From Spirochaetales bacterium (GTDB lineage: Bacteria; Spirochaetota; Spirochaetia; JABMQR01): a stretch of 64,000 nt of DNA. Position numbers and translations under genes: made by a program. The stretch covers positions 6,130 through 70,129 of the forward strand of contig JAGYPA010000017.1 in the NCBI GenBank assembly GCA_018399255.1, given 5' to 3'. The notes below the pieces were generated by a model. It did no database searches and was not told the DNA's origin. It saw nothing but the letters and a program-made list of their open reading frames with translations. Below, piece after piece: positions 15,868 through 35,038 of this stretch (the first letter of the stretch is position 1; every line of letters begins with the position of its first letter).

Positions 15868-15886
15868 GATCAATAAAGGATAACAT

Positions 15887-18670
15887 ATGGATATACAATG
15901 GTATGCTGCAGCGCAGGAGCTGACAGCACAGATGACGCTGGAAGAGAAGGCAAGCCTCTGTTCGGGAAAAGATTTCTGGAACCTCAAAGGCATAGAACGG
16001 CTGAATTTGCCCGAAATCATGGTCACCGATGGACCGCACGGGCTCAGGAAGCAGTCTGAAGAAACCGACCATGAGGGTTTGCGTCCAAGTATCCCGAGCA
16101 CCTGCTTTCCCCGGCCGTCACCATGGCCTGCACGTGGGACCCCGGGCTCATCGAAACCTTGGACGCCCTGGCCGGGAGAGCAGGGAAGAGGGCGTATCAG
16201 TAGTCTTGGGACCCGGGGCAAACATCGCTGATCGCCCCTGTGCGGGCGAAATTTAGTATTTCTCTGAAGATCCCTTTCTTTACCGGAGAATTTGGCCTTG
16301 GCCCACATCCGCGGAGTCAGAGCGGAGGCATCGGCACATCCCTCAAGCATTTTGCCGTAAACAACCAGGAAACCAACCGGCTGTTTATTGATGCCGTGGT
16401 CGATGAACACCCTGCGGGAAATCTACCTGCCTGGATTCGAAAAGGCGGTGAAAGAAGGGTCAGCCTGACACAGTCATTGCGCCTACAATCGCCTGAACGG
16501 CACCTACTGCAGTGAAAACGAATACCCGCTCACCACGATTCCCGGGATCAGTGGGGCTTTACGGGGATGGTCGTTTCCGACTGGGGCCGTAAGCGATCGG
16601 GTAAAGGAATTCAGGCCGGGCTGGACCGGAAATGCCCGCGAGCCGCGGCGAAAACGACCGCAAGATTGTTGAGGCAGTCAAGTCCGGTGCCCTCGCCGAT
16701 GAACTCCCCGACCGGGCAGCCGTCCGGATAACAGCCCTGATTCTCAAGTCGGCAGACTTCCCTCAAGGCATCAGACCCCCAAGGCATCAGACTTCAAGTC
16801 GGCAGCTTCCCTCAAGGTATCAGACCCTCAAGTCAGCAGCCTTCCCGGAATGCCGATCACCCCCGCAGCAGGCAAAGCTGATGAGCAGGGGCAGGGCGGC
16901 CGCATACAATCGGGATCAGCACCATAACCTGGCTCGAACCATCGCCGCCGAAGGCATCGTACTTCTCAAAACCAGGACAACCTCCTGCCGATCACGTGCC
17001 CAGGGAGGCAAACCCCCGCAAACCTCGAAAACAGATAACCCCGGCAAACCCCCGCACCCCCCGCAAAAAGATCGCCGTATTGGCGATTTCGCCCGGAACC
17101 CACGCTATCAGGGAGCAGGAAGTTCGGCAAGTAACCCGACACGCCTTGACTCAGCCCTGGATGCAATAATCGGCAGCCGAACCCTTTGGGCATGCCAGAT
17201 TGATTTTGCCCGGGGCTATGACCCCGACAAAACCGAAAACCCCGATATTTCCGGACACACCGGATACCCCCTGAAAACCCCGAAGCTTCCGACACACCGG
17301 ATACCCCCGAAAACCCCGAAATTCAGCCGGAAAAATCGGACCTTGCAGCAGAAGCCTGCAGACTTGCCGCAGCCGCTGACCTGGTCCTGCTGTTTGCCGG
17401 ACTGCCCGATTCCTACGAATCCGAAGGATTTGACCGCACCCACATGCGCCTTCCTGAAGAACATAACCAGCTGATAAGAGCCGTGGCAAAGGCAAACCCG
17501 AAAACAGCCGTAATACTCAGCAACGGAGCCCCGGTAGAAATGCCCTGGGCAGATTCAGTCCCGGCAATCCTGGAAACCTACCTGGGAGGCCAGGCCGGCG
17601 GCAGCGCCGCGGCAGATGTGCTATTCGGCAAGGTAAATCCATCCGGACATCTCGCAGAGACATTCCCCCTAATCCTGGCTGATACCCCCTGCTGCGAAAA
17701 CTTCCCCGGAGGCAGGTATCGCGTACAGTACCGGGAAGGCCTGCATGTCGGCTACCGCTGGTATGCATCCGCCAACAAACCCGTGCGGTTTCCCTTCGGC
17801 CATGGCCTCAGCTATACCACCTTCACCTTCAGCAAAATGGAGCTCAGCAGGCAATCGATAACGCTGAAAACAGCAAACACGCATCAAGAAACGACCCCGC
17901 TGCTCGAAGTCTCGGTAACCGTGAAGAACACCGGCCAACGGAGCGGCAAAGAGGTAGTCCAGATCTATATACGGCCAAAAAAGAGCTCAGTCTATCGCCC
18001 GGAAATTGAGTTGAAAGGATTCGCCAAAATACTCGTAGAACCCGGGGAAAGCGCAATCGTCACCATCCCCTTGGATGCCAGAGCCTTCTCCTTCTACAAT
18101 ACCGCCATAGGCGACTGGGCGGTAGAGACTGGAACCTACGAGATTCTTGCTGGAAGCTCATCGGAATCCATTCATCTCACAGCTGCTGTACAGATACGGG
18201 TCGATCGGCCTGATACGCGGGAGAGGCTCCTCAGGGAAAATTCGGCTTTTCTGGCCCCGGACATTGATGGGATAAGCTACAGTGACACAGTCTTTGCGGC
18301 TCTGCTTGGGCGGGAAATTCCTTCGGATGTGCCGCTGGAGGATGTTGTCACTCTTAATACACCGCTACGGGATCTGAGAGGGACCGTCGTTGGAGATCAG
18401 CTGCATGCAGGTCTGCTGGCTGGACTGGCGAACCTGTCCACCCCGGAAACCGACGATGTTCAAATCGGAACGGCTTTATCAGCAGTTGATGAAGCCACGA
18501 AGCGTTTGCAAATCAGGCAGAACCGGCAGAAAATGATCAGAATGTTTGAACGAGCTATTGAGGGGATCCCACTTCGGAGCGCATTCATGTTCAGCAGAGG
18601 AGCAGTTTCATTTGCTCAGTTGGAAAAAATGATCAGGCTCCTGAATCAGGAAGGAGGCGCCGAAAGATAA
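15887..18670 (+). pseudogene. GH3 beta-glucosidase (BglX-like), degraded by frameshifts and internal repeat expansions
   Basis: N-terminus [41 protein letters not shown] (GH3). The middle (HFAVNNQETNR.., ..IVEAVKSGAL.., ..HHNLARTIAAEGIVLLK..) is spread over at least 4 frames. The C-terminal 408-aa ORF 17444-18670 carries the GH3 C-domain and FnIII-like domain (AADLVLLFAGLPDSYESEGFDRTHMRLPEEHNQLI..PVEMPW). Pro-rich repeat tracts lie at 16745-16860 and 17240-17335. Confidence 0.75.
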
Positions 18671-19122
18671 ACGGGGGGAATCCGGCTCGCGACAATCCGG
18701 CAGCTCTGCGTATACTTCCCAAACGGAGCGAGAGGAGGAGGGGGCATTTTGATGGTTCCATTCCCGATAAGCCAATTCACAGAATTGGCCGTGCTGGGAT
18801 CGCGGGCAAGTTTCTACTTGCCTTAACAACATACCCCCCCCCTGAGTACTCTGCGGCCCCCTTAGGGGCGGCAAAGGAGTCGAAGCCTCCTGGGTCCCAA
18901 GCATTCCCTTAGGGAATGCCGCTTGCCCATGGTAAGCCGCTTGCCCTGGAGTATGATACCCTGTCAGCAGTATACCCTGTGGAAAACGATTACTCAACTG
19001 AGGCGGAAGCTGTGCTGGCAGTGCAGTCGCAAAGCAGGCGAACAATCTTGTTTTCAATCGTTACGCAGTGCTATTTTCCCTCAAAACTGAAGTTGCTGGT
19101 GCGGAGCAAGGTTGGCAACAGG

Positions 19123-19178
19123 CAACTCACCTACAACTCACCTACAACTCACCTTCAACTCACCTTCAACTCACCTCG
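19123..19178. repeat. Tandem 10/11-nt repeats (caactcacct)x5
   Basis: Direct reading. Downstream of vapC. Confidence 0.8.
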
Positions 19179-19190
19179 GAAAGAAAACCC

Positions 19191-19598
19191 TCAGTTTACC
19201 AGGGTCCAATCTTCAATTCGCAGGTCCGGAATTCTGCAGTATTCTTTTGTGTTATGGGTTACAAGAATCCCATTTCCGGCGAGAGCGGTTGCTGCTATGA
19301 TAAGATCATTTGGTCCTATAACATTTCCCTCCAGTTCAAGAGAAGCGCGAAGATCAGCATATACTGCCGCAGCAGAGTCACCAAAGGGTACTATTTCCAT
19401 CGGCCGCAGGAAAGAGTAAATATTATGAAGGTTCTCCTCCCTTTTCATACTCTTCTCAGCTCCATACAGGAGTTCAGCTTTAACCATGGATGGAATTTTG
19501 ATTTGATCAGAATGGTGCTTTGCTAATTGAGGAGCTATAGAGGGGAATAGCCCTTTGAGAAAATAGATACAGATATTCGTATCAAGATACCAGTTCAC
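19191..19598 (-). CDS. vapC: Type II toxin VapC (PIN-domain ribonuclease)
   Basis: MNWYLDTNICIYFL... with the PIN acidic residues (D6, E, D, N near C-terminus). 135 aa. Overlaps the upstream antitoxin gene by 4 nt. Confidence 0.8.
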   Translation of the reverse strand: MNWYLDTNICIYFLKGLFPSIAPQLAKHHSDQIKIPSMVKAELLYGAEKSMKREENLHNIYSFLRPMEIVPFGDSAAAVYADLRASLELEGNVIGPNDLIIAATALAGNGILVTHNTKEYCRIPDLRIEDWTLVN

Positions 19599-19825
19599 AA
19601 TAATTCCCTTGGAAGGTCTGCAGGAAATTCAGGAGCATCAGGTACTGAAAATGAGTCATCATGTATGGATCCGAACAGCTGGAAAAATTTTTCAGGCCAC
19701 TCTGATTTCAGACTTTTCTTTATCACGCGGGAAACAAATTTTGAGATTGACAGGTTAGCTGAATTGGCGGCAGTTTCCACTTCCTTGAGAGTTTCAGCAT
19801 CAATGTAAAGGGATATTTGCGGCAT
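19595..19825 (-). CDS. Cognate antitoxin (VapB-like, putative ribbon-helix-helix)
   Basis: Small ORF translationally coupled to vapC (ATGA overlap). MPQISLYIDAETLKEVETAA... is typical of RHH/CopG-like antitoxins. Confidence 0.55.
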   Translation of the reverse strand: MPQISLYIDAETLKEVETAANSANLSISKFVSRVIKKSLKSEWPEKFFQLFGSIHDDSFSVPDAPEFPADLPRELL

Positions 19826-19910
19826 AATTTCCTCCCGCTTTAACAAGTATACCCCCAAGTATACTTGTTAGGCCTGTTTCTGTCAAGGGAGGGGAAGAAT
19901 GGGGGAAGAA

Positions 19911-19972
19911 TGGTGTCTGACACCGTATCCCGCAAAAAAACCCTGTTAAATTTCGGAATCCGGTAACAGTCG
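19911..19972. repeat. 55-60-nt double-hairpin repeat element, copy 1 of 3
   Basis: TGGTGTCTGACACCGTATCCCGCAAAAAAACCCTGTTAAATTTCGGAATCCGGT: perfect inverted repeat GGTGTC/GACACC followed by a stem ATCCCGC...GCGGAAT with loop AAAAAAACCTGTTAAATT. Confidence 0.8.
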
Positions 19973-19983
19973 TCGAAATGCAG

Positions 19984-21480
19984 CTACTGAGCCTTTATGT
20001 TCTTAACCGCGGTATCTAAGTCTTCTCGCTGTATTACCTGGAGAGGGATCGGCCTGCTGCTGTCGGAGCAGTTTATGATCAGACGATGATGAATACCCAG
20101 CCGTATTGAATAAAAATCCCCGCCCCCCCCAGTTTTCAACTTCTTTGTCTGCTTGAATACCTCCCTGTTGCGGGTACAGAAACCGGTAAAGGATTCGACA
20201 GCCTTTTTTTTGACTCCCGGTTCAAGCATCTCCAGTGATTTCTGAAACTTCTCAGGGAATACCGGAATGCAAAAAGGGAGAGTTCCCATCTCCGACTCTC
20301 GCAGGTCTTCCTCAACGTTTTCCCTCAGGTCCTGGTCATCACTATCCTGTATCTGCGACTCCCGAACCTGAGTTCTGAGCTCCCGGAAAGATTCCTGTTT
20401 TGTGCTGATAATCTGTTTCAGATGGGCTATCTTTTCCCTGCTCCTTTTGATCGCGTCATCATCAGCATGAATTCTCTGAGGGTGCTGCTCGCTAGACTCT
20501 ATTCTGTTCTGCAGCAGGGTTATTTTTTTCTTTTGCGCGGCACTCTCAGCATGTGCTTCCCGTAACTCCTTCTTCAGCTCCTGCATTTCTTCCCTGATAA
20601 ATTCATCCGGTTCTCGGTCATCGTCTTCATCGGCCAGGTCCTGATACAGATCCATAACGGCGAGAGCGGGATCTTCCCAGTAGTCAATGTCAAGATCTGA
20701 ATAGATTTCCATGATATCCTCGTGCATCGATTCAATATCAAAAAATCTCTCAGGAGAGGTTGCTGTCACAGCCCTGAACAGCAGCACGGCTATTCCAGGA
20801 TAGTGATGCCTGATGGTGTAAAACAGGTCGATAACTTCTTCAAGCTCCTCAATTCCCCGCACACATACCTGTTCGATATAATCCAACACTGCACCGGTAT
20901 TCTTTCGATAGAGGCTGCAGAGGAATTCTACCTTTTTGTAATCATTGCTTTCGGTATTGAAAAACAGTTTCAGAATCCGGGGAGCGAATTCAAACCGGTT
21001 GTCATAATTTATATGAAAGGCTGCATCCATTATCCAGTTATCAAAGGCATCATCCATTTCCGGCAGGGTGATTTTACGGTTTCGCAATCGCAAGGTTTCT
21101 TTTCTGCCCGGTAAAATTCCGTTGGTATCCTCATAAAACCTTCTCAGTTCAACAAGAAAATGGAGGGCGAGGAGAATATCTGAGTGAAGAGCAGTTTTAA
21201 AAGCTGCCGCTGCCTGATCTTTCGTCATGTTCTGCACATCAAGATCCTGCAGCTCGATGAGTGACATTTCCCGAATTTCCCTCACACTGAATGCTGCTAC
21301 ATTGTCTTTTTTCAGCTGATAGTTGTGCTCATGGGCAGTAACATAATGAGAACCCGGCAGAATCCCTCCAAGGCAGCAGTTTTTGTACTTTTTGCCGCTG
21401 CCGCAGGGGCAGGGATCGTTGCGTCCTACCTTTTTCTCTTTTCTTACCAGAGGTTCTTCAGGGAAATAATCTTCATTCAT
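19984..21480 (-). CDS. SEC-C-motif protein with helical/coiled-coil middle and a C-terminal tail resembling RelE/ParE toxins
   Basis: N-terminal [18 protein letters not shown] is the SecA-C-terminal metal-binding motif. The central region is charged and coiled-coil ([35 protein letters not shown]...). The C-terminus ..[42 protein letters not shown] follows the ySiRig-yRiiY...vl.V.hR pattern of RelE/ParE; this is inference. The start is at MNEDYF, because the upstream extension runs through a tandem repeat. Confidence 0.65.
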
Positions 21481-21554
21481 TGCCCTATCATATCGATCTG
21501 CTGCAAAAACAGCAATAATGTCGCTGGCAAAGATGTCCACAAGTAACAGCGAAC

Positions 21555-21594
21555 GGGCAGCAAGACTGCTGGAGGGCAGCAAGACTGCTGGAGG
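21555..21594. repeat. 2 tandem copies of the 19-bp unit GGGCAGCAAGACTGCTGGA
   Basis: Same unit as the 5-copy array at 22497-22590. Confidence 0.8.
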
Positions 21595-22496
21595 GTGTAA
21601 GTGCCCGAATTAATTTGACCCAAATACCCACATTGTTTTAAATCGAAAATCCTTCAGTAGTTGCTAAAATCCCGAGATATTATCAACTTTCTCTTTACCC
21701 GCATATTTTTACCGAACGACCATAGCGCGGGCATACACGTCCTGATGCAGCAGCACAAGAAAACGGCAGCCCTCAGGCTGCCTTAAGCGCCCGGCGGGCG
21801 CTCAGAAGCGGTGGAAATCCGATTTCTATGGGAAATCCGATTTCCTCCTTCTTTTTTGGGAAATCCTGTCATGACTGCAAAGGAGGGCAGGATTTCATGG
21901 GTTTGCAGGGTTGCATAGGAGGCTATGATTGAAAAAAGAAGGGCAATAAAAGCAGCTGATGGGAAGAGAAACCCGGTTAAGTCCGGCTCAATATACACAT
22001 GTCGCACGAGTAGCCGGAAGGAAGCAAATAAGGTTTTGCAGGGTAAGGAGCTGCTGAGAGGGTCACGAAAACCTTAAGCCTGGCTCAAAACACACGTGTC
22101 GCACGAGGAGGAGGGGGCGGAATTATGCAAGGGACAGGGGCAAATAAACTATATCTTCCCATGCCGGCTGAATGTTCCTTCAGTTTTGCAGCAAGGACAG
22201 ATCAACCCCCTGACAAAAGCCTTGCAGTCAGGGTAGCGTGATTCAAAGCAGTAATTTTCTTTTGTGGTTCTTAAGCAAATTATCGCTTTATTTGGAGACC
22301 CGGTCAAACCTGAGGCTCTTGCAAAAAGCAAGAGCGACGTTTTGGAGCTAATATTCAAAAATGTGAAGCATTTTGAAATTGGCTCAACTGTCAAAAGAAT
22401 TATGCCCGGTCTCTTTTCTCCTTTCTTAATACTACCAAGAATTTTAATACGGGTATTTCTCTCATTTCAAGTCCTTTTTTTGCGGGATTCTACAGA

Positions 22497-22590
22497 GGGC
22501 AGCAAGACTGCTGGAGGGCAGCAAGACTGCTGGAGGGCAGCAAGTCTGCTGGAGGGCAGTAAGACTGCCGGAGGGCAGCAAGACTGCAGC
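22497..22590. repeat. 5 tandem copies of the 19-bp unit GGGCAGCAAGACTGCTGGA, with no spacers
   Basis: Direct reading. The unit is itself semi-palindromic (GCAGCA/TGCTGG). Confidence 0.85.
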
Positions 22591-22627
22591 CAGGCTTTGC
22601 CAGCTCAGGTAAAGTCCGGTAAAATTA

Positions 22628-23026
22628 TCAGGCAAGCTCGGCGGTTTCCCGTTTGATCCTTTCGTAAATATTTCGCGCTTCGATAATAAAATCGTACGCA
22701 TCCTCATAAGAGGGCATTCCATCGGGCAGTAAGCCCAGGTCTGATGGATATCTTGCCTCTATATAGGTTTCATTGATCATCTTGAAAGTTTCCATATTAA
22801 TGTCTAGCTTCAGATAGTTCCTCACTGTACCATATAATTTGATCAAATTATGTATTTTAGGAATTTCATTTGTTTTCAAGATGATCAATGCCTTAAACGA
22901 TTTCTCAACGCATTGATGACAGTGGAAGGTAACATTGTTGGTCAAGTCAGGATCTGTTAGAATCAATTCTGCTGTTTTTAAATCTTTTTCTGCAAAACGC
23001 AGCCATTCATCAACGAGTTGTTTCAT
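22628..23026 (-). CDS. HEPN domain protein, toxin-like partner of the adjacent nucleotidyltransferase
   Basis: 132 aa, all-helical. Overlaps the upstream nucleotidyltransferase gene by 17 nt; this HEPN/MNT operon organisation is classic. Confidence 0.7.
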   Translation of the reverse strand: MKQLVDEWLRFAEKDLKTAELILTDPDLTNNVTFHCHQCVEKSFKALIILKTNEIPKIHNLIKLYGTVRNYLKLDINMETFKMINETYIEARYPSDLGLLPDGMPSYEDAYDFIIEARNIYERIKRETAELA

Positions 23027-23354
23027 AAAGCACTTTCCCTTTTTCTATTTCCCTGATGAATGGATGATTAACTTCACATGATTTTTCATATTCTGTTCTG
23101 GTATAAACCACCAGGTCAATGGGTACTTCATAGCTGATATCCAGTATCGCATTTCTCACTAATAATTTATTTTTTATTCTTTCCCGGTAGTTCTGAGGGA
23201 TTTCAAAGCTGTTCAGAATAACAGCCAGATCAATATCACTATCTTTATGTTCATTGCGCTCGGATAATGAGCCAAACAGAACTATTTTATATACGTCAAT
23301 GCCCTTCAGGGCATTAATAATTATTGGCAGGTAGTGGTTCAGTGACATTTCCAT
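23010..23354 (-). CDS. Minimal nucleotidyltransferase (MNT) domain protein
   Basis: LFGSLSERNEHKDSDIDLAVIL is the GS...DxD motif of Pol-beta-type nucleotidyltransferases. Confidence 0.8.
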   Translation of the reverse strand: MEMSLNHYLPIIINALKGIDVYKIVLFGSLSERNEHKDSDIDLAVILNSFEIPQNYRERIKNKLLVRNAILDISYEVPIDLVVYTRTEYEKSCEVNHPFIREIEKGKVLYETTR

Positions 23355-23443
23355 GAATCTATCTTACCGCAGATTATAATGCCTGTCATCAGCTATATCC
23401 CGGTGGAGAGCACAGGTGCACGGAAAAAGTGTGTCTGTGAGAT

Positions 23444-23502
23444 TGGTGTCTGACACCGTATCCCGCAAAAAAAACCTGTTAAATTGCGGGATCCGGTACC
23501 AG
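23444..23502. repeat. Double-hairpin repeat element, copy 2 of 3, followed by (acaccgaa)x4 at 23507-23540
   Basis: TGGTGTCTGACACCGTATCCCGCAAAAAAAACCTGTTAAATTGCGGGATCCGGT; the stem ATCCCGCAA/TTGCGGGAT is perfect. Confidence 0.8.
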
Positions 23503-23711
23503 ACATCCAAACACCGAAACACCGAAACACCGAAACACCCTTACCATTGTTAACGAAAGTTCTTTATGATACGGTAGGCTTGCGACAGGGTATTCGGAAG
23601 CCCCCATTGGAATGTGGTACGGCTGATTGTAGAGGTATAGCATTGCACTTGCCGTAAGACAGCTGGATTACCGTTTACCGTAACACTATCTGTTTGGAGA
23701 AAAGTTGAGAT

Positions 23712-24869
23712 ATGCAAGTAGGATGCACAAAGAAACTGTTGGATTATATGGGCTTGAAGGCTGAACCTGCTGACCCGGAAGCGGATCCCGTATTGAGCTG
23801 GAGTGCCAATAGCATTACGATCAACCACCGCCGGGCCATCATCGCCGGCAACGACTCATCACGATATGGATTCATATTGTACGGCATCAAGAGTAAGGAT
23901 AAAAAGAACTTGGGAAGGCTGCTTCTTGATGGAGTACGTGCATGCCTGGAAGCCGAGTGCATAGCCCCTGAACTCATACACAGGTATATGGACGATTGCG
24001 GGGCAAATGTCACCTTCACAAAGACACCCGGCAGCTCTGTAGTGGCAAGACTGAACAAACTATGTCTTAGTGCGTCATATATTGCAGAACTGCTGACCAC
24101 TGAACAACTGTTTCAGCAGCAGATATTACTGAGATTCAATAACGATTACATTACAAGTAAAAGCGAACCCCCAGGAGATTACAAAAACGGCCCTGCAAGC
24201 GAATCCCCAGGAGATCGCAAAAGGATTTATCACAACGTATACACGAAATTTGCCGATGACATTTCCCAGCGGTATGGTGCTCACCCGTATGGCTGCAATG
24301 CAGTTGAGCTCGAGGTGGAGCTCGAGTTGGAAAGCCTGTGCCGCAGGCGGATCATCGTCCCCTCCGGCTATACCTTCCGGCAGTTACATCTTGTTCTCCA
24401 AAACCTTTTCTGCTGGCAGCGCTGCCATCTGCATGAATTCTCGATAGAACGCTATCCGAACGGCCGGTTGAAGCACACGCTGGTCGGACATCCTCAGGAG
24501 TTTGATCTGGAAGGTGAGACCACACAACCGGATAGTTCAGTGCAGCTCTCCGAAATATTCCCACACTATGATCACATCATCTACACCTATGATTACGGGG
24601 ATGACTGGACCCATCACATCCGGTTTGTTGGCATCATCAACAATTATGATAAGAATCATGCGGTATGCCTCAGCGGAGAGGGCGATGCTCCCCCTGAGGA
24701 TGTGGGAGGAGCTCCCGGGTATGCCCGGCTGCTTCAGGTTCTGGCAGATCCTGAAGATCCTGACTATGACAACCTGAAGGCATGGTACGAATGGATGCAC
24801 TGCAGACCTTTCGATCTGGACAGGGTGAACAGCGCCTTACAGCACTGCGTGAGATCGTATGATTACTGA
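23712..24869 (+). CDS. Plasmid pRiA4b ORF-3-family protein (PRiA4_ORF3 domain) with N-terminal extension
   Basis: C-terminal block ..IYTYDYGDDWTHHIRFVGII..CLSGEGDAPPEDVGGAPGY.. matches the conserved Y-D-[FY]-G-D-D-W-x-H core of the pfam PRiA4_ORF3 family, an IS-associated passenger protein. Confidence 0.6.
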   Translation: MQVGCTKKLLDYMGLKAEPADPEADPVLSWSANSITINHRRAIIAGNDSSRYGFILYGIKSKDKKNLGRLLLDGVRACLEAECIAPELIHRYMDDCGANVTFTKTPGSSVVARLNKLCLSASYIAELLTTEQLFQQQILLRFNNDYITSKSEPPGDYKNGPASESPGDRKRIYHNVYTKFADDISQRYGAHPYGCNAVELEVELELESLCRRRIIVPSGYTFRQLHLVLQNLFCWQRCHLHEFSIERYPNGRLKHTLVGHPQEFDLEGETTQPDSSVQLSEIFPHYDHIIYTYDYGDDWTHHIRFVGIINNYDKNHAVCLSGEGDAPPEDVGGAPGYARLLQVLADPEDPDYDNLKAWYEWMHCRPFDLDRVNSALQHCVRSYDY

Positions 24870-25029
24870 TAATACGATAACAGACGAACACAGCCGAATC
24901 AGCGCGCCCAGCGGAACATAGCAAGCAAGGCCAAACACAGCGCGCCCAGCGAACACAGCCGGCCCCATAAAGATTGACCGGCTGCCTGCCGGTGCGGTAT
25001 ACTCAGCGTTGTATGAGAGGGGCGTATAC

Positions 25030-26175
25030 ATGAAAATTCTCGTAACCGGGGCGGCCGGATTTATCGGCTTTCACCTTTCCAGAAAATTACTCGAAAACTC
25101 CCGTGAAATAATCGGGATTGATAACCTGAACACCTATTACGATCCGGCGCTCAAACAGTCGAGACTCCAGCAATTGGAGCAGTACCCGGAATTTACCTTT
25201 CAGAAGGTTGATATAAAAGACAAGGCAGCCGTAGACACCCTCTTCGAAACGCATCGGCCCACACACGTCATCAACCTGGCAGCTCAAGCCGGCGTGCGCT
25301 ACTCAATCGATAACCCCTACGCCTATGTGGATTCAAACCTCATTGGCTTCGTGAATATCCTCGAAGCCTGCAGAAACAACCCGGTAGAGCACCTGCTCTA
25401 TGCATCCTCCAGCTCCGTCTATGGGGGCAATACCGTCGTACCGTTTTCTACCGACCACAATGTTGATCACCCCGTCTCGCTCTACGCGGCCACAAAGAAA
25501 GCCAATGAACTGATGGCCCACACCTACAGCCACCTCTATGGCATCCCCACTACCGGACTCCGCTTCTTCACCGTATACGGACCCTACGGCAGACCCGATA
25601 TGGCCTACTACTCATTTACCAAAGACATCCTTGCCGGAGTCCCCATCAAAGTCTTCAACCACGGAAAGATGGAGCGGGACTTCACCTATATTGATGACAT
25701 TGTTGAAGGCATCGTGAAGCTTATCGATAAACCGCCGTCCGCCGGCAAAAAGCGGGACGGAACACGGAACAAGAGAGTGGACGATACCCGAAATGATGGC
25801 CGGAATGTAAGCTTGGACGATGGCCAGAAAGAGAGCCGGAATGCAAGCTTGGACGATGGCCAGAAAGAGAGCCGGGATGATGCGAATGCCAGCTTCGCTC
25901 CCTACAAGATATATAACATCGGAAACAGCAAGCCCGTGCCGCTGATGAGATTTATCAGCGCCCTGGAAACCGCCCTGGGCAGAGAGGCTGATAAAATCTA
26001 TCTGGACATGCAGCCGGGAGATGTCCCGAGGACCTACGCCGACGTCTCAGAGCTTGAACGGGACATCGGCTTCAGACCCTCGACCGCCATCGAGGACGGA
26101 CTTGCACGCTTCGTCGACTGGTACCTCGAATACCATCAGATTGAGAAAAAAACCGCACTTTCACACAAAGGATAA
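25030..26175 (+). CDS. NAD-dependent epimerase/dehydratase (UDP-glucuronate 4-epimerase-like) carrying an in-frame tandem-repeat insertion
   Basis: Rossmann GAAGFIGFH motif and YAATKKANE (YxxxK catalytic motif). A 36-bp unit gtaagcttggacgatggccagaaagagagccggaat is repeated twice in frame at ~25800-25880 (..RNVSLDDGQKESRNASLDDGQKESRDD..), within a surface loop before the C-terminal subdomain. Confidence 0.85.
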   Translation: MKILVTGAAGFIGFHLSRKLLENSREIIGIDNLNTYYDPALKQSRLQQLEQYPEFTFQKVDIKDKAAVDTLFETHRPTHVINLAAQAGVRYSIDNPYAYVDSNLIGFVNILEACRNNPVEHLLYASSSSVYGGNTVVPFSTDHNVDHPVSLYAATKKANELMAHTYSHLYGIPTTGLRFFTVYGPYGRPDMAYYSFTKDILAGVPIKVFNHGKMERDFTYIDDIVEGIVKLIDKPPSAGKKRDGTRNKRVDDTRNDGRNVSLDDGQKESRNASLDDGQKESRDDANASFAPYKIYNIGNSKPVPLMRFISALETALGREADKIYLDMQPGDVPRTYADVSELERDIGFRPSTAIEDGLARFVDWYLEYHQIEKKTALSHKG

Positions 26176-26228
26176 GACAAGCAAAGGGTACCCGACCAAG
26201 GGACAATACTGACAAGGGGTAAAAAACA

Positions 26229-27395
26229 ATGAAAATAACAATTGCCGGAACCGGCTACGTAGGCCTCTCTAACGCCATTCTGCTCGCTCAGCATAATGAA
26301 GTCATCGCCCTCGATATCATCAAGGAAAAAGTTGCGCTGATAAACCAGAGGAAATCACCCGTCATCGATCCCGAAATAGAAGAGTACCTGGCCGAAAAGG
26401 ACCTGAACCTGAGAGCGACAAACGATAACTACGAAGCCTTCAAGGATGCCGAATATATCATAGTCTCAACCCAGACAAACTACGACCCGGAAAAAAACTA
26501 CTTCAACACCAGAAGCGTAGAAGCTGTCATAGCCAATGTCCTGTCGATAAACCCCGATGCAATAATGGTGATCAAATCAACCGTACCGGTAGGCTACACA
26601 GAGGCGATCAAGGAAAAATTCGAAACAGACAATGTCATCTTCAGCCCGGAGTTTCTGAGGGAGGGCAAAGCCCTATACGACAACCTCCACCCCTCGAGAA
26701 TCGTCGTCGGCGAGCAGTCCGAACGGGCGAGAGTGTTTGCCGGGCTTCTGGCACAGGGGGCCATCAAAAAAGACATCCCGATACTCTACACCAATCCCAC
26801 CGAGGCCGAAGCCATCAAACTCTTTGCCAACACCTACCTTGCCCTGCGTGTGGCCTATTTTAACGAGCTCGACTCCTATGCAGAAATGCGCGGCCTCGAT
26901 ACCCGGCAGATAATTGAAGGAGTAGGCCTGGATCCCCGCATCGGCACCCACTACAACAACCCCTCCTTCGGGTATGGCGGATACTGCCTGCCGAAGGATA
27001 CAAAACAGCTGCTCGCCAACTATCAGGATGTACCCCAGAACATCATGTCAGCAATCGTAGATGCCAACCGCACGCGAAAAGACCATGTAGCAGACATGAT
27101 CATAAACAGGAACCCGAAGACCGTAGGCATCTACCGACTCACCATGAAAATGGATTCTGACAACTTCCGCCAGTCAGCAATCCAGGGAATAATGAAGCGA
27201 ATCAAAGCCAAAGGCATCGAGACCGTCGTCTACGAGCCAGCCCTCGAGGGAGACGAGTTCTACCGGTCAAGAGTAATAAAAAACATAGACGAGTTTAAGA
27301 AAATCTCCGATGTCATCGTGACCAACAGATTATCACCGGAAATTGCCGACGTGGCAGACAAAGTCTACACCCGGGACCTCTTCAGCCGGGACTGA
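26229..27395 (+). CDS. ugd: UDP-glucose 6-dehydrogenase
   Basis: [21 protein letters not shown]-terminus, catalytic Cys region [10 protein letters not shown], 388 aa. Confidence 0.9.
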
Positions 27396-27450
27396 GAAGG
27401 GCGGAGGGAGGGATCCGGTATTTGGGATCCGGCATCTAGGGTGATGAGAG

Positions 27451-27513
27451 GGTGTCTGACACCGTATTCCTCAAAAACACCGGGTTAAATTGCGGAATCC
27501 GGTGTCAAACACC
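27451..27513. repeat. Double-hairpin repeat element, copy 3 of 3 (the most diverged)
   Basis: GGTGTCTGACACCGTATTCCTCAAAAACACCGGGTTAAATTGCGGAATCCGGTGTCAAACACC. The long stem GACACCGTATTCC/GGAATCCGGTGTC is preserved by compensatory changes. Confidence 0.75.
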
Positions 27514-27801
27514 AAAACACAATTAACGAGCGTAAGATCCATTGATACAGTGTGATGCCTATGGGGGCTACCACCACTCGGGTCAGGCTGACTCAATATC
27601 ATCAGGAGAAAGTGAGGTTTCCTTGTTAAGGATTGGGGTATGTAAAACCAGCTTGCCTATGTTGTGCAGCAAATCGATGACTTTCCAACCCCAGCTGCCC
27701 CATCCCAGCCCCCCTGGATAGTCACTCCCGCATCAGGCGCTTATAAGCGTAAACGCCCCGCACGTAATTGATTTTTGATCAAATTCGTTCTATAAACCGT
27801 T

Positions 27802-29682
27802 ATGGAACAAATTAAAAAAATAAAAAACAGCTGTGACAGGTTCAACAGAAACCTGGAAGAAATTGAGCCGTCTATGTACAGATGGGTCCTGCGGTCCGCG
27901 TCTGTAGCAAGTGATATCGCTGAACTGAAGAAACGGGAGCAGGATCCCGAGAATGCGTATCCAGAGAATTGGCATGACATGATGGCTGCCGGCCGCGCGA
28001 TCTCCTATACCCTGACCCGAAAAGAACGGATACAAAAATTTCTCGGAAGTCACCGGCACAAGATTACCGATGACGCAATAGAGCTGCTCAAACATCTCCA
28101 AGACAACCCCCTGCGATGGACTGCCTTCAGGGTGGACGAAAAACTCGATAAAAACCTGTTCAGGATAACGGATGTACTGGATAAGGAAAAACAGCTTCCT
28201 CCACTCTACTCAATAGGCGTCTCCAACCAGCTGAGAAGCAGCATAAGCCAGGATACCCTGTTTATCACCCTGATTTTGGACAACGGAGAATCTTTGCAGA
28301 CCATCGGCATCATCCACAGCTACCTCTCGGTAACGGAAAATGACCTCGACTTCCTCTGCAGCGTCCTGGACAAAGATCTCTACGAAAACCGGGGACTCTC
28401 AGGCGTTATCAGCAAACATTTTCTCAAGTTTTTCGCAATTGATGAGATCGCGGAAATACCGCCCATTGTCTTTCGCGGAATGCTGTCAGAGGTTATCTGG
28501 CGGGAGCTGCATCTGGAAGATATCGGCAGAGTGCTGCTGCCGGGAAATTGGGATATTGAAGAAACAATAGATGGGGTACTCAGATTTGAATTTCTCGGAC
28601 CGGATGAAAAACTCACAGCCCTGGAACCGATGGCCGGGCAGAACCCTGAACAACCCTGGAAGATGGCAGGCATGTTTCCTTCCTATCTCTATCTGTACCC
28701 GCAAAAGCAGACTGCCTGCATCCACGCAGCATCATTTCACGACTATACCATACTGCATCAGGTACTTAACGGTAAATTCGACCTCGAAGAAGGTGCCCGC
28801 GGCCTGCCGTTCTTTCGCATATCCTCCACGGTGTGGAGCATAGCCTCACAAATACCCGATTTAGCACTGCCTTGGGATTGGTACATAGAACAGTTCGAGG
28901 AGGAAGAGGATGAAGACCCCGAGGACCCCGAAGATACCGAAAACCCCGAGGGCACCGAAGATTCACCCTTTATGGCATCCATAAATACACTAATTAGTGA
29001 AGTAATGATTGCCAGAAATTCAGGCACTGAGGTCGATATCCCGAAGCGCTGCGATGAACTGGGGCTCGATCTTTCCATAGCGGAATCCATTCTGGAACAA
29101 TTGGAGGGGGTGACGAAGAGGATGATGCCCGATCTCGAACTTACAGATGACGACAGGACATGGGAAATACCCGACCTCACGATACCACCTCCGTCAATCC
29201 GCCGGGAATTCTCCAGGCCCTTGTACAATTCTACGCTGTTCACGACAAATGAGACCCGGCACAGCTATGAGCTCTTTGCCTCACTGGCGGGAGAAAAAAA
29301 TGCGGTAAAGACTGAACCCGGGGACATGGCAGACTACATTACCTCCCTCTTTGAAGAAACCTTCGACCGGTTTGGCCCCACAATCATGAGCAGCCTGTTT
29401 TTAATACTTTTAGAGCAGGGAGACCGATGGGTCTCGGTGCGCTCCTGCGGAATAGAGATCCTGAAGCTGTTTCACCAGGTGCTGCTTCCCACGCTCAAGA
29501 CTGACAAGGATACCTTTCTCTCCCAGTTCAGCCGGTTTGTGCTCATGTCCCTTTGCTCCAACGGGCTGCTGGAACTATCAGAACGGCCGAAAGGCGAAGC
29601 ACGCACCCGTGGAACCTACAAAATCAGACCGAGTGCCTTCTTTCGACAATTCATAGCGCTGAATGCAAAAAGAATTGATTAG
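27802..29682 (+). CDS. Hypothetical 626-aa protein with an acidic E/D/P-rich linker; paralogue of 4101-6020
   Basis: See the paralogue alignment blocks under 4101-6020. The acidic tract EEEEDEDPEDPEDTENPEGTED lies at ~28890-28960. Confidence 0.7.
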   Translation: MEQIKKIKNSCDRFNRNLEEIEPSMYRWVLRSASVASDIAELKKREQDPENAYPENWHDMMAAGRAISYTLTRKERIQKFLGSHRHKITDDAIELLKHLQDNPLRWTAFRVDEKLDKNLFRITDVLDKEKQLPPLYSIGVSNQLRSSISQDTLFITLILDNGESLQTIGIIHSYLSVTENDLDFLCSVLDKDLYENRGLSGVISKHFLKFFAIDEIAEIPPIVFRGMLSEVIWRELHLEDIGRVLLPGNWDIEETIDGVLRFEFLGPDEKLTALEPMAGQNPEQPWKMAGMFPSYLYLYPQKQTACIHAASFHDYTILHQVLNGKFDLEEGARGLPFFRISSTVWSIASQIPDLALPWDWYIEQFEEEEDEDPEDPEDTENPEGTEDSPFMASINTLISEVMIARNSGTEVDIPKRCDELGLDLSIAESILEQLEGVTKRMMPDLELTDDDRTWEIPDLTIPPPSIRREFSRPLYNSTLFTTNETRHSYELFASLAGEKNAVKTEPGDMADYITSLFEETFDRFGPTIMSSLFLILLEQGDRWVSVRSCGIEILKLFHQVLLPTLKTDKDTFLSQFSRFVLMSLCSNGLLELSERPKGEARTRGTYKIRPSAFFRQFIALNAKRID

Positions 29683-29705
29683 ACTCATTGGATCATACTT
29701 GCTGC

Positions 29706-29948
29706 ATGATAACAGAAAATATGTATCAGGCAAAAACACACTTATCCAAACTCGTTGCTAAGGCACTTCAAGGAGAAGAGGTTATCCTCGCCAAAGCTGG
29801 AAAACCCCTGGTAAAGCTTGTCCCCGTTTCGCAGTTGGTTAAACCGGTCAAAATAGGCCTGCTGAAGGGAGAAATCAAGATTTCTGATGATTTTAACGAA
29901 TTCGCTCCAGAAATCGAAGACATGTTCGATGGGTATCTTCCAGAATGA
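29706..29948 (+). CDS. Phd/YefM-family type II antitoxin (orphan)
   Basis: MITENMYQAKTHLSKLVAKALQGEEVILAKAGKPLVKLVPV matches the Phd/YefM N-terminal fold (..AKanLseLv..v..GeeviItr.GkPvakLvP). The 50 codons downstream in the ATGA-coupled frame (MTSALLLECSLPPQRFVRH...) look like a truncated toxin remnant. Confidence 0.65.
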   Translation: MITENMYQAKTHLSKLVAKALQGEEVILAKAGKPLVKLVPVSQLVKPVKIGLLKGEIKISDDFNEFAPEIEDMFDGYLPE

Positions 29949-30093
29949 CATCAGCATTATTGCTCGAATGCTCATTACCGCCGCAACGCTTTGTCAGACA
30001 CGCTTCTAAATCAGATAAGCTTCTGACCAGACTCACTTCTTGTCAGACTTTTTTATTGAACATCTACCATGTTTGCCCCATACTGATACTGAA

Positions 30094-30137
30094 GTACTGA
30101 CGTACTGACCTGACGTACTGACCTGACGTACTGACAG
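30094..30137. repeat. 3 tandem copies of the 13-bp unit CCTGACGTACTGA immediately upstream of the 30155 gene
   Basis: Direct reading. Each unit contains the palindromes GTAC and ACGT. Confidence 0.8.
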
Positions 30138-30154
30138 AAAGGAGTGTGCTGCCA

Positions 30155-31090
30155 ATGCCTTCAACCTTCAAAGATCTGAGGATTGTCGACAATTTCTACC
30201 AGACATCAAGCTTTTTCCCCATGCCCACTATCGTGATCGGAACCCTCTGTGAGGACGGCCTGACGAACCTGGGTTCCTACTCGCTCTGCTTTCCCTATTA
30301 CATCGCCGGGAAAGAGTACTATGCCATGCTGCTGGAGTGCCGGAACAACTCCAATACCGCCGTAAACCTGCTGCGGACGGGGAAATGCAGCCTCAACTTC
30401 ATTCCGGACCGGCGTAAATATTTCAAGGAGGCTGTACGGCTGGGGTACCCTGGAGATACGCCGCAGGAGAAGGTAAAGGACACCATCTTTACGCTGGAAA
30501 AGGGCCTGCGGGCACAGGAGGATCCCGACGGCCGCTATCCCGAAATCATAGCCGAATCATTCCAGGTCTTCGAATGCAGCTGGGACAGCTCGCTGGACAA
30601 TGCCAGTGAGGATACCGTACAGGAACAGTACAATCCCCCTTTCCGGAATTTCAACGGGATTACCAGTACCTTTGGTGCTCATTTCATCCTCAAAGTAGAG
30701 CGGATACTGATGCAGGAGCGCTATCATGCCGCGATAGTCAACGGAATGCGGGCCGGCAGATTTCCGAGAGTGCCGGTAGATTACGGATATCGTGATAATA
30801 CCCGGTTCTGGTATACCCGTTTCCGTCGGCCTCTTGCCCAATTGATCCCGAAGAAGAAGGGACAGGAACTCTCGTCTGTTGTCTACGCTGCCGATCGGAT
30901 GGATGATCAGGTCAAGTTCACCGAAGCAGCCTGTGCCCGACTGGTGAACGTGCCGCGGGTCTTTCTCAACACCGCACTTTCCGCCTGTGTGAAATGGGCA
31001 AAGGAGAACGGAGTAGTGGAGATCACCGCCGAGCATATGGATATCATCAACGACAAACGCTCGAAAGAGAAAGGCCGGCGTCGTTCCTGA
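30155..31090 (+). CDS. Flavin-reductase-like (FMN-binding split-barrel) domain protein with C-terminal extension
   Basis: The N-terminal ~150 aa (PMPTIVIGTL..GLTNLGSYSL..TAVNLLRTGKCSLNFIP..) resemble the Flavin_Reduct fold. RBS aaaggag lies 8 nt before ATG 30155. Confidence 0.4.
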   Translation: MPSTFKDLRIVDNFYQTSSFFPMPTIVIGTLCEDGLTNLGSYSLCFPYYIAGKEYYAMLLECRNNSNTAVNLLRTGKCSLNFIPDRRKYFKEAVRLGYPGDTPQEKVKDTIFTLEKGLRAQEDPDGRYPEIIAESFQVFECSWDSSLDNASEDTVQEQYNPPFRNFNGITSTFGAHFILKVERILMQERYHAAIVNGMRAGRFPRVPVDYGYRDNTRFWYTRFRRPLAQLIPKKKGQELSSVVYAADRMDDQVKFTEAACARLVNVPRVFLNTALSACVKWAKENGVVEITAEHMDIINDKRSKEKGRRRS

Positions 31091-31240
31091 TACGGATTCG
31101 AGGTTTGTGCAGCAAACTAAATCAGGAAGGCGATATTGACCAAAAGAGAACCGACAAATAATAGCCGTATTCTGGAGCCAATATCCAGGTTGCTGTTTCT
31201 ATCGGAGCAGCTGCTGTCGAAAAAGCGACTTGAAGGAAAA

Positions 31241-31318
31241 ACCGTTCAGTTAGCCGATGAGCTGATGTACCGTTCAGTTAGCCGATGAGCTGATGTGCCG
31301 GATGAGCTGATGTACCGG
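31241..31318. repeat. About 2.5 tandem copies of the 28-bp unit ccgttcagttagccgatgagctgatgta
   Basis: Direct reading. Convergent intergenic region. Confidence 0.8.
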
Positions 31319-31390
31319 AGTAAACAGCAGAAGGTGATAAGTCCGACAGACTCCTGGTAAAAAAACGCGGATGCCCAACTTAATAAAAAA

Positions 31391-32920: not shown

Positions 32921-32927
32921 GTCCCCC

Positions 32928-33704: not shown

Positions 33705-33814
33705 GACAATCTCCTGATATTCATGTATGTATATCCTTGAATGCAGTTGTGTGCACTGCAGAAAAGTTTGCAGTGCACACAATTTCAGAAAGTTTTAATC
33801 CCTAAGAATGCTGT

Positions 33815-34822: not shown

Positions 34823-35038
34823 AGTTTCCTCCTTTCATATATTTTTCATATATGATAATTATGTATACAAAACATTGTATCGCTTATTTACCAATTGTCA
34901 ACTATATTTTTTTATTTTTTCCTAAAGGTACTGTATGGAAGGTACTGAACTTTCTCAACACAGCCAGATTGATGAATGAAATTTTACAGTTTGCAAAATG
35001 TTTATGAGAAAGGATGTACATCAAGATAAACTCTTAAA

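Follow-up and report, generated by a model that had tools for sequence, protein, structure and literature searches.

The block at 18671-30145 of the window, the whole 64-kb stretch of Spirochaetales DNA that we analysed, is a native, lineage-specific chromosome segment, variable and rich in toxin-antitoxin (TA) genes; the discrete acquired island proposed in an earlier note is not supported. Three copies of a short palindromic repeat lie between its genes and may represent a new MITE/REP-like DNA repeat that serves as a recombination hot spot in this region, a reading to which we assign a probability of roughly 0.45. The block contains the following genes.

19191-19598, minus strand: vapC with a PIN domain (E=1.4e-17; 148.8 bits, cut-off 140, to NF047863, tRNA(fMet)-specific VapC)
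19595-19858, minus: small vapB-like gene, upstream of vapC with a 4-nt overlap
19839..19886, minus: vapBC promoter-like site TTGACA-17-TATACT (11/12 promoter match), overlapping a palindrome
19984..21480, minus: SEC-C-motif protein with a coiled coil (SEC-C E=1.5e-9; ORF open to 21582)
22628-23026, minus: HEPN (Pfam E=3.2e-23)
23010-23354, minus: MNT nucleotidyltransferase (Polbeta/NTP_transf_2; MntA equivalog 38.8 bits, below the cut-off of 60)
23712-24869, plus: DUF6933+PRiA4_ORF3 protein (profile matches including PDC-S63)
25009-26175, plus: NAD-dependent epimerase (Pfam/NCBIfam)
26229-27395, plus: Ugd, UDP-glucose 6-dehydrogenase (Pfam/NCBIfam)
27802-29682, plus: 626-aa protein, family uncharacterised; its 639-aa paralogue is encoded at 4101-6020 (minus)
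29688-29948, plus: Phd antitoxin, followed by a PIN remnant and a 13-nt tandem array up to 30145

All ten genes named in the earlier note were recovered, as were the three repeat copies, the tandem arrays, the gene-free stretch of ~1 kb and the absence of an integrase. The SEC-C protein is present, but its likely start at 21480 gives 498 rather than 499 aa, and its supposed RelE-like tail came down to a sub-threshold ParE_like match (E=0.045) with no PDB sequence match. The 626-aa protein and the 639-aa product encoded next to SWIM are indeed paralogues over their full length (24% identity, E=1e-26); the 626-aa protein has no match in Pfam, NCBIfam, PADLOC or PHROG. Phd is an orphan antitoxin, as had been proposed, since ~270 bp are missing from the interior of the downstream PIN gene; Phd and the PIN remnant are reproduced in the independent short-read contig L001.

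The vapBC genes (19191..19858) form a type II TA operon, whose proteins are 100% and 98% identical to those of L002, a contig of the sister lineage. A palindrome with a 14-bp stem at 19839-19872 overlaps the vapBC promoter-like site and is probably the vapBC operator, which would give it a regulatory role. The type VII-like MNT-HEPN pair (22628..23354) is shared by the window and strains L091-L096 and is missing from L002. VapC toxins cleave initiator tRNA and are restrained by VapB, and HEPN RNases are neutralised by MNT; the TA modules of the block presumably work as their families do. The search for defence systems yielded PADLOC candidate matches for SWIM (PDC-S62, E=6.6e-16), DUF6933 (PDC-S63, E=7.6e-7) and MNT (PDC-S09, E=1.2e-10), but it did not reveal any known defence system in complete form.

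We compared the window with one sister lineage (contigs L002-L005) and a few short strain contigs. The order vapBC, SEC-C, PRiA4, epimerase, ugd, 626-aa homologue, phd and flavin-reductase-like gene is conserved in L002-L005, with 74-100% protein identity for these backbone genes. Single proteins have been shortened: an internal deletion reduces the DUF6933+PRiA4_ORF3 protein to 196 aa in L002, and only the C-terminal 210 aa of the SEC-C protein are left in strains L091-L094. The immediate neighbours of the block in the sister lineage are the SWIM/639-aa locus on the left and the HK2/RR2/SBP2 sugar locus on the right. Therefore, the two flanking loci between which the island was thought to sit, described as housekeeping sugar loci, are themselves insertion/deletion differences between the lineages, as follows.

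6206..19084 (right end approximate), no strand: window-specific 12.9-kb segment, missing from L002, in which 6205 is joined to ~19085
31073..41517, no strand: window-specific 10.4-kb segment, in place of which L002 has 85 nt with a (AAAAACCC)n array

The first segment holds HK, RR, a fragmented SBP, permeases, GH31 and a GH3 pseudogene (sugar locus 1, Pfam) and takes in 414 nt of the proposed island; the second encodes a TctABC-type transporter, BKACE, GntR regulators, a split transketolase and a dehydrogenase. The GH3 gene, said to be decayed right up to the island edge, does carry at least six frameshifts (15.9-16.75 kb) and a repeat insertion at 16744-17321, but its last 408 codons, at that edge, form an intact ORF.

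A horizontally acquired 11.5-kb accessory or defence island between the sugar loci, with the hairpins marking the mobile unit, is thus improbable. The dense TA modules and the predicted defence-candidate matches would suit it, as would the decayed genes nearby (GH3, PIN) and the foreign look of epimerase-ugd (25009..27395), which is the sub-segment least typical in composition (correlation 0.50); the two genes are adjacent in Clostridia too, with Ugd identity of up to 88%. Overall, however, the composition is native and not foreign relative to the flanks, with a GC content of 0.481 and a tetranucleotide L1 distance from the remaining window of 0.113, which few other windows of 11.5 kb undercut. 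Neither edge, 18671 or 30145, coincides with a breakpoint, and the hairpins sit at intergenic junctions within the block rather than at its borders. None of the ORFs examined in the window gave an integrase or transposase domain; the block has no tRNA gene and no bounding direct repeats, and its plasmid or phage similarity is limited to a 60-bp SEC-C motif. In more distant relatives (76-78% identity), the block is missing beside the flavin-reductase-like gene, which says little because nothing else is syntenic there either. The sister lineage keeps the order of the block and not its flanks, so that the outcome the earlier note had itself named as speaking against an island was largely obtained. 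What stands of that proposal is a TA-rich, lineage-restricted region in which single modules vary around a conserved backbone.

The repeat itself had been described as a ~55-nt double hairpin. It does occur in three conserved copies, but it is a single oriented imperfect palindrome of ~62 nt, with two 22-nt arms (TGTCTGA...TCAGACA) and an asymmetric 15-16-nt loop. The repeats and the elements beside them are listed here.

19907..19978, plus: repeat copy 1, right arm decayed (89 bits), between the SEC-C stop codon and the vapBC promoter
21555..21595, no strand: 19-nt tandem array part 1, GGGCAGCAAGACTGCTGGA, 2.2 units, missing from L002
21596..22494, no strand: probable non-autonomous transposable element, 899 bp, ends TGTAAGTGCCCG.../...CGGGATTCTACA, 5-bp duplication GAGGG
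22495..22587, no strand: 19-nt tandem array part 2, 4.9 units
23440..23511, plus: repeat copy 2, the best hairpin (-36.3 kcal/mol, z=-7.0), at the right edge of 21521-~23437
23509-23539, plus: (AAACACCG)n array directly after repeat copy 2
27405..27435, plus: two partial right-arm fragments, GGGATCCGGTA and GGGATCCGGCA, read from sequence
27446..27517, plus: repeat copy 3 (fold z=-4.2)
27716..27742, plus: degenerate half-site ..TCCCGCA.., upstream of the 626-aa gene

The 27-nt core gave three matches against 0.00 expected by chance, and the two orientations are clearly distinguished (77-89 bits forward versus 15-32 bits in reverse). The copies are 76-89% identical, and part of the left arm is tandemly duplicated in strains L091 and L094. 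Neither the remaining 52 kb of the window nor 1.5 Mb of other loci contains a further copy, and scans of genomes, metagenomes and viruses returned no true match, one later match being a chance one inside a gene.

The junctions that differ between the lineages lie at or beside these repeats. The window-specific stretch 21521-~23437 stops at hairpin 2, and the homology break in L002 adjoins the hairpin of L002, which is empty at the site matching the HEPN/MNT module of the window. The interval between ugd and the 626-aa gene carries a hairpin in both genomes, in opposite orientation and with different content; at the site of copy 3, L002 has the inverted repeat followed by a two-gene module, an unrelated 116+135-aa pair as against HEPN/MNT beside the repeat in the window. 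Half-sites lie at the module borders: the exact 14-mer CACCGGATCCCGCA stands on either side of the L002 module, once within the hairpin and once, repeating the hairpin arm, as the counterpart of the half-site at 27716..27742. These half-sites were identified post hoc by inspecting breakpoints, and some coincidence is expected, since the repeats, like insertions and deletions of whole genes, are limited to intergenic DNA.

No convincing gene was found in 21583-22627, and the "gene-free" stretch at 21596..22494 is probably the 899-bp non-autonomous transposable element listed above. Its termini read TGT..ACA, and its interior contains two hairpins resembling terminators and, on the minus strand, a promoter-like site. 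The element has a second insertion site: strains L095 and L096 join its end at 22494 to SEC-C codons at window position 20719. The array at 22495..22587 is a rearrangement junction in other strains. The 14-mer ATCCCGCAAAAAAA is common to the end of the element, within its terminal repeat, and the inner part of the hairpin; the terminal repeat is imperfect and matches at just 8/12 and 14/26 positions.

The genes from vapBC through SEC-C, DUF6933/PRiA4, epimerase-ugd, the 626-aa gene and phd to the flavin-reductase-like gene form a backbone common to both lineages, at whose intergenic junctions small modules are gained, lost and degraded: in the window the MNT-HEPN pair, the 899-bp element and the decayed Phd-PIN module, and in the sister lineage another two-gene pair. 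On the reading of the repeat as a MITE/REP-like hot spot, the inner 14-mer that it shares with the terminal repeat of the 899-bp element makes it probable that a single transposase or recombinase, with its gene elsewhere in the genome, recognises both. This trans-acting enzyme is hypothetical, as the window holds no transposase or recombinase. Complete and half copies would then act as hot spots that reshuffle the adjacent TA modules, a causal role that we infer. The repeat would itself be mobile; no target-site duplication is visible at the hairpin copies, and their transposition was not observed because they occupy orthologous positions in both lineages.

The positions of some copies could also point to the RNA level, where the hairpin would be a terminator, insulator, stabiliser or processing signal between operons, copied locally and unrelated to rearrangements. 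Strong stems are predicted, copy 1 sits in front of the vapBC promoter, 6 nt past the end of the SEC-C gene, copy 3 follows the ugd stop codon by 50 nt, and a copy in L002 stands between two convergent stop codons. We nevertheless regard this role as unlikely: the stem has no following U-tract on either strand, and copy 2 and its L002 counterpart lie between divergent gene starts. The fold of copy 1 is no different from shuffles, palindromic pairing is lost in two of six copies, seven copies show no compensatory pair changes, and Rfam gave no true match even with E up to 1.

The breakpoints vary relative to the palindrome, a point against the hot-spot reading too: they fall outside its left end, at the border of arm and loop or in the loop, which argues against one precise crossover point. 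It is rather unlikely that the hairpins are sites of a trans-acting tyrosine-type site-specific recombinase exchanging TA cassettes, as in integrase-less integron attC arrays (CALINs) or Xer-dependent pdif modules. The inner arms TCCCGCAA(A/T)3AA around an asymmetric ~7-nt spacer do give a 13-7-13 geometry, and the asymmetric loop sets a strict orientation. In L002, one module has a full site on one side and a directly repeated half-site on the other, an empty hairpin stands where the window carries HEPN/MNT, and site 3 is flipped; the variable modules are two-gene units, which are typical of pdif modules and of many integron cassettes. Yet the outer boxes GTCTGAC/GTCAGAC are unlike the attC RYYYAAC/GTTRRRY, and the XerC/XerD-like arms are not in register. 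The crossover points differ between events, two copies have lost the palindrome, a recombinase gene is absent nearby, and the sites are spaced 3.5-4.0 kb apart among genes of mixed orientation with their own promoters.

It is highly improbable that the pattern arose partly from errors in a hybrid long-read/short-read metagenome assembly or from chimeric short contigs. The exact window sequence is present in a run of the Lake Shunet Nanopore+Illumina study, the GH3 frameshifts are clustered, the SBP gene is fragmented, and the strain contigs, of just 1.0-1.8 kb, end in repeats. Against this, an independent short-read contig is 100% identical over 25846-30902, including hairpin 3 and the PIN remnant, identical junctions recur in the independent samples L091-L093, L094, L095 and L096, and L002, L003 and L004 are mutually consistent.

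Among known systems, the PADLOC profiles PDC-S62, PDC-S63 and PDC-S09, matched by the SWIM protein, the DUF6933 domain and MNT, belong to a set of 145 candidates predicted by guilt-by-embedding; the 626-aa and 639-aa proteins gave no match to anything. Like chromosomal TA clusters and plasticity zones, the region combines type II and VII modules within a few kb (VapBC, MNT-HEPN, Phd-PIN), with decayed toxins and variation between strains; unlike them, it is not compositionally foreign, has no bounding integrase or tRNA gene, and interleaves its TA genes with conserved non-TA genes. The pdif modules of Acinetobacter plasmids are likewise small, often encode TA and carry short recombination sites at both ends, in either orientation, for the Xer enzymes encoded elsewhere, whereas the present locus is chromosomal, its site is a 62-nt palindrome rather than a 28-nt 11-6-11 XerC/XerD site, and the arm similarity is partial and out of register. 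Integron attC sites and CALINs share the ~60-nt imperfect palindromes with conserved mismatches, placed between modules that often encode TA, and need no recombinase in cis; the present repeat does not follow the R''/R' consensus (AAC/GTT), its modules are 3.5-4 kb, multi-gene and of mixed orientation with their own promoters, and the sister lineage has one site in the opposite orientation. From MITE, REP and BIME elements (e.g., Correia, ERIC, REP), the repeat differs in having three copies only, all inside 7.6 kb of the 64-kb window, with no visible target-site duplication and no RAYT or transposase seen, and its asymmetric loop is, unusually for REPs, strictly conserved. It resembles them in being a short, intergenic, non-coding imperfect palindrome with several diverged copies and TGT..ACA termini, associated with rearrangements and carrying a motif that recurs at the end of a larger, neighbouring non-autonomous element.

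The stretch at 18671-30145 (the block) had been proposed in an earlier note to be an acquired island rich in toxin-antitoxin and defence-type genes. In composition, the block is native to its surroundings, with a GC content of 0.481 and a tetranucleotide L1 distance to the rest of the window of 0.113, which is among the lowest for all 11.5-kb windows; the epimerase-ugd pair is its only compositionally atypical sub-segment. The reported absence of an integrase or transposase held, as no such Pfam domain was found in any ORF examined. We also detected no tRNA gene in the window, no direct repeats at 18671 or 30145, no Rfam matches in the window at the gathering score or up to E=1, and no meaningful similarity of the block to plasmids or phages.

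Among 5.8 billion clusters, the 626-aa protein encoded in the block has two close relatives, whose contigs led to a sister lineage represented by L002 (a JGI metagenome), L003 (NCBI MAG GCA_964546945.1), L004, and L005. The contig L002 carries the same gene order as the window, namely vapC, vapB, SEC-C, DUF6933/PRiA4, epimerase, ugd, the 626-aa homologue, phd, and a flavin-reductase-like gene, with 74-100% protein identity across the conserved order. The whole block is not variably present among close relatives, as an island would be; it is kept in L002-L005, all of one sister lineage, and the flanks are missing instead. On the left side of L002, the block adjoins the SWIM/639-aa locus (window 6205 joined to ~19085), and on the right side the sugar locus with the HK2, RR2, and SBP2 genes (window 31072 joined to 41518). 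These junctions indicate that the lineages differ by the 12.9-kb sugar locus that includes the GH3 pseudogene, as well as by a 10.4-kb transporter segment; neither 18671 nor 30145 is a breakpoint in this comparison. Synteny sought through the flavin-reductase-like gene, among relatives at 76-78% identity, was absent altogether and hence uninformative.

Genes of the SWIM/639-aa locus, and the 626-aa gene of the block
1969-3396, SWIM gene
4101-6020, 639-aa gene, convergent to the SWIM gene
27802-29682, 626-aa gene, paralogue of the 639-aa gene

Gene order conserved throughout the genus, combined with normal composition, is what the earlier note itself had set against an island; we found normal composition and, in the one sister lineage compared, conserved order. 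To the extent that this single lineage allows, the entire block is therefore not read as a discrete acquired island. It is nevertheless rich in toxin-antitoxin genes, as proposed, and it varies at the level of modules. Island predictions from sequence only call for caution, as a "mobile-looking" toxin-antitoxin run flanked by sugar loci may turn out to be what is conserved; the variable part here is the "housekeeping" flanks and not the toxin-antitoxin-rich run. We also considered a 15.6-kb mobile unit bounded by a 30-nt inverted repeat (6407-6436 and 21984-22013) and rejected it because the enclosed vapBC and SEC-C genes are conserved in L002.

The first sugar locus (6617-13500) is a diverged paralogue of the second (41610-47718), with 31-37% protein identity and short DNA matches, and the sister lineage possesses the second locus only. 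The GH3 gene had been described as decayed right up to the block edge. It contains at least six frameshifts (15.9-16.75 kb) and a repeat insertion, but its last 408 codons are intact. The affected part of the gene lies at 15887-17474; the insertion is a proline-rich tandem repeat in a stretch of 57-59% GC. The SBP gene of the first sugar locus (9702-10942) is a 205-aa fragment. The exact window sequence is present in a run of the Nanopore and Illumina study of Lake Shunet, a saline meromictic lake. Since the source is apparently a hybrid assembly of both read types, the GH3 frameshifts and the SBP fragmentation could partly be uncorrected long-read errors; the damage in both genes may be real decay or such indels.

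The ORF map and domain scans recovered the genes listed previously for the block. VapC contains a PIN domain (E=1.4e-17, Pfam) and scores above the cut-off of NF047863, the NCBIfam equivalog for tRNA(fMet)-specific VapC. The vapC gene overlaps a small antitoxin-like gene by 4 nt, with a promoter-like site and a palindrome, and the VapB-like antitoxin fell into no family (DUF6364, E=0.008). The PIN toxin, the overlapping small gene before it, and the palindrome are the features of a type II VapBC toxin-antitoxin module. The HEPN and MNT genes overlap by 17 nt, and both domains exceed their Pfam cut-offs; the MNT protein reaches 38.8 bits for the MntA equivalog (NCBIfam cut-off, 60), and the pair belongs to type VII toxin-antitoxin systems at the level of predicted domains only. 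The remaining run comprises a SEC-C-motif protein, a DUF6933+PRiA4_ORF3 protein, an NAD-dependent epimerase, Ugd, the 626-aa protein, and Phd. For the tail of the SEC-C protein, previously called RelE-like, the only match is a sub-threshold one to ParE_like (E=0.045, 14.2 bits against a cut-off of 24.4), and a PDB sequence search of the tail gave no match. PRiA4_ORF3-like proteins are known passengers of ISAzba1-group transposons. The Phd antitoxin is indeed an orphan, which an internal deletion in the following PIN gene explains; the deletion recurs in an independent short-read contig.

Ugd is 82-88% identical to orthologues from Clostridia and Bacilli, and among 80 Ugd loci (L009-L088), mostly of Firmicutes, the epimerase-ugd adjacency is the sole synteny in common with the window. 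As the two genes are also adjacent in Clostridia, the pair may have been acquired together as a unit. At 2-3 kb downstream, two of these loci (L046 and L010) carry a PRiA4-like or SEC-C-motif gene. The epimerase gene has an in-frame 36-nt tandem repeat of 2.8 copies (25778-25879), adding a charged low-complexity insert that is apparently missing from the 364-aa orthologue in L002.

As for defence, a scan of individual PADLOC profiles identified no complete validated system. It gave motif-level matches and single-profile matches to predicted PDC candidates: PDC-S62 for the SWIM protein, PDC-S63 for the DUF6933 domain, and PDC-S09 for MNT. The PDC profiles are a set of 145 candidates predicted by guilt-by-embedding. 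The 626-aa protein matched nothing in Pfam, NCBIfam, PADLOC, or PHROGs. Its suggested paralogy to the protein beside the SWIM gene was confirmed over the full length (24% identity to the 639-aa protein, E=1e-26). The family of both proteins comprises 319 clusters and has a confident predicted structure, with neither a structural neighbour nor a family match; a profile of 32 sequences, used in a word-indexed search, retrieved the same three proteins only. Winged-helix and OB-like domains are predicted for the 626-aa protein. This uncharacterised family and the SWIM and DUF6933 proteins matching predicted defence candidates are worth following up.

Three copies of a conserved hairpin element had been reported in the block. 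The copies are real, with a 27-nt core found three times against 0 expected, and the element is a single long imperfect hairpin of ~62 nt instead of a double hairpin of ~55 nt. The tandem arrays noted in the block were also found; short arrays with units of 8, 11, 13, and 28 nt lie at many junctions differing between the lineages, for example an (AAACACCG)n array next to hairpin 2 and, at the right junction of L002, an (AAAAACCC)n array.

Palindromic repeats and junction arrays (window coordinates unless stated)
19907-19978, hairpin 1
23440-23511, hairpin 2
27446-27517, hairpin 3
19123-19176, junction array
23509-23539, junction array
30081-30135, junction array
31241-31319, junction array
L002 13780-13812, junction array

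The segment from 21521 to ~23437 is specific to the window and consists of two 19-nt arrays, separated by ~900 nt devoid of genes, and of the MNT-HEPN pair after them. The segment stops at hairpin 2, and the break of homology in L002 abuts the orthologous hairpin. In the interval from the ugd stop to the 626-aa gene's promoter, hairpin 3 of the window is accompanied by two incomplete arm fragments and about 200 nt, and L002 has an inverted hairpin followed by an unrelated overlapping pair of genes encoding 116 and 135 aa (9146-9942), for which we found no family match. Placed like a toxin-antitoxin module beside the inverted hairpin, the two genes may constitute an undescribed toxin-antitoxin pair. 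Exact copies of the 14-mer CACCGGATCCCGCA enclose the module, the first within the hairpin and the second as a half-site near the 626-aa gene; the window still has a degenerate version of this half-site, and a search of the window for a remnant of the two-gene module returned none. Among the short strain contigs with the same HEPN cluster, L091-L094 have the 19-nt array fused to the middle of the SEC-C gene at window 20785, which reduces SEC-C to a C-terminal ORF of 210 aa (a coiled coil and the ParE-like tail), and in L095 and L096 the gene-free stretch is inserted into the SEC-C remnant at window 20719. The left arm of the hairpin is partly tandem-duplicated in L091 and L094. The PRiA4 gene of L002 is internally deleted, as is the PIN gene of the window.

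The ~1-kb stretch described as gene-free has no convincing gene, only small ORFs without family matches, but is probably a transposable element of 899 bp (21596-22494). It starts with TGTAAGTGCCCG and finishes with CGGGATTCTACA; the terminal repeats of its TGT..ACA ends match at 8/12 and 14/26 positions. A 5-bp duplication, GAGGG, flanks it at 21591-95 and 22495-99 inside the 19-nt array. The end at 22494, the only one seen in L095 and L096, is joined there to SEC-C codon sequence. Its inverted ends, the duplicated target site, and one end shared between different flanks are the features of a MITE or non-autonomous DDE-type element; we consider the stretch a probable element of this kind, with two insertion sites among closely related strains. 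Inside lie a minus-strand promoter-like site and two terminator-like hairpins. Another motif, ACACATGTCGCACGAGTAG, occurs at 6407-6425(-), 21995-22013(+), and 22092-22110(+), three times against 0.01 expected; two copies are inside the element and one is close to the left-hand junction of the 12.9-kb segment specific to the window. The 19-nt arrays were rejected as CRISPR-like, as spacers are absent, and no Rep gene supports them as iterons.

The palindromic repeat has a core reading TGTCTGA...TCAGACA. Its fold z-scores are -7 for copy 2 and -4 to -5 for copy 3, and copy 1 is without its right arm. A profile of six copies retrieved only the known ones (77-89 bits in one orientation against 15-32 in the other) and no further copy, either elsewhere in the 64-kb window or among other loci totalling 1.5 Mb. 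All three copies of the window lie within 7.6 kb; its other 52 kb are free of the repeat, as is the rest of L002 (14 kb). Exact-pattern scans of the genome contig collection and pattern scans of the metagenome and viral contig collections returned no match, and the single match to a looser inner-arm pattern, inside a gene on a high-GC contig, was judged to be chance.

The hairpin might also be an RNA structure under selection. Seven copies show no compensatory pair changes, two of six no longer fold, no U-tract follows the stem, and one of the three sites sits between divergent gene starts. These observations point to a DNA-level repeat, and the selected RNA structure was dropped for want of covariation. 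We read the hairpin as a new MITE/REP-like palindrome. It has inverted arms; no duplication flanks any copy, and each of the three sites has its orthologue in the other lineage, one of them inverted. The terminal repeat of the 899-bp element contains ATCCCGCAAAAAAA, a 14-mer that also forms the inner left arm and loop start of the hairpin. The two are probably related through this shared motif, to which an enzyme that we infer would bind.

How could such a repeat take part in the turnover of the modules? In our main reading, the hairpin copies and half-copies would act as hot spots for rearrangements by which neighbouring toxin-antitoxin modules are gained or lost; an autonomous partner of the repeats would carry TGT...ATCCCGCAA at its own ends. 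The boldest form of this reading is that the 62-nt oriented palindrome would serve as recombination site in a cassette-exchange system, so far undescribed and without an integrase in cis, in which a recombinase or transposase encoded elsewhere would insert, excise, and invert two-gene toxin-antitoxin modules and mobilise the 899-bp element. We give it a probability of roughly one in eight. The enzyme acting in trans, the mobility of the hairpin itself, and its causal role in the rearrangements are inferred. Several points weaken the reading of the hairpin as a MITE/REP-like hot spot: the hairpins have no target-site duplication and occupy orthologous sites in both lineages, the breakpoints differ in position relative to the palindrome, the half-sites were recognised post hoc, and repeats as well as whole-gene insertions and deletions are both restricted to intergenic DNA. 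If the repeat were a true recombination site, it would represent a new route for shuffling toxin-antitoxin modules. The locus, from an uncultured bacterium, offers a small, tractable case of toxin-antitoxin modules turning over next to a small transposable element and a palindromic repeat that is lineage-specific.

Among known systems, REP/BIME elements comprise many dispersed intergenic copies and a cognate RAYT gene, and the repeat may be one of them; the window, as the part of the genome covered here, has three clustered copies and no RAYT gene. A pdif/Xer site consists of an 11-nt XerC arm, a 6-nt spacer, and an 11-nt XerD arm, following the dif consensus. Compared with this consensus, ATCCCGCAAAA matches a XerC arm at 8/11 positions and TGTTAAAT is similar to the XerD arm, but the two lie out of register, and we do not regard the repeat as such a site. 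Integron attC sites carry R'' (RYYYAAC) and R' (GTTRRRY) at the palindrome ends, whereas the hairpin ends with GTCTGAC and GTCAGAC in all copies and has GAC/GTC where the attC core has AAC/GTT; one GTTAAAT is present, but in the loop and not at an end. Integron arrays and CALINs have one site per short, mostly promoterless cassette in uniform site orientation, whereas the hairpins are spaced by 3533 and 4006 nt, the genes between them are in mixed orientation with their own promoter-like sites, and one site is inverted in L002. An integron cassette array or CALIN was accordingly rejected on end sequences, spacing, promoters, and orientation.
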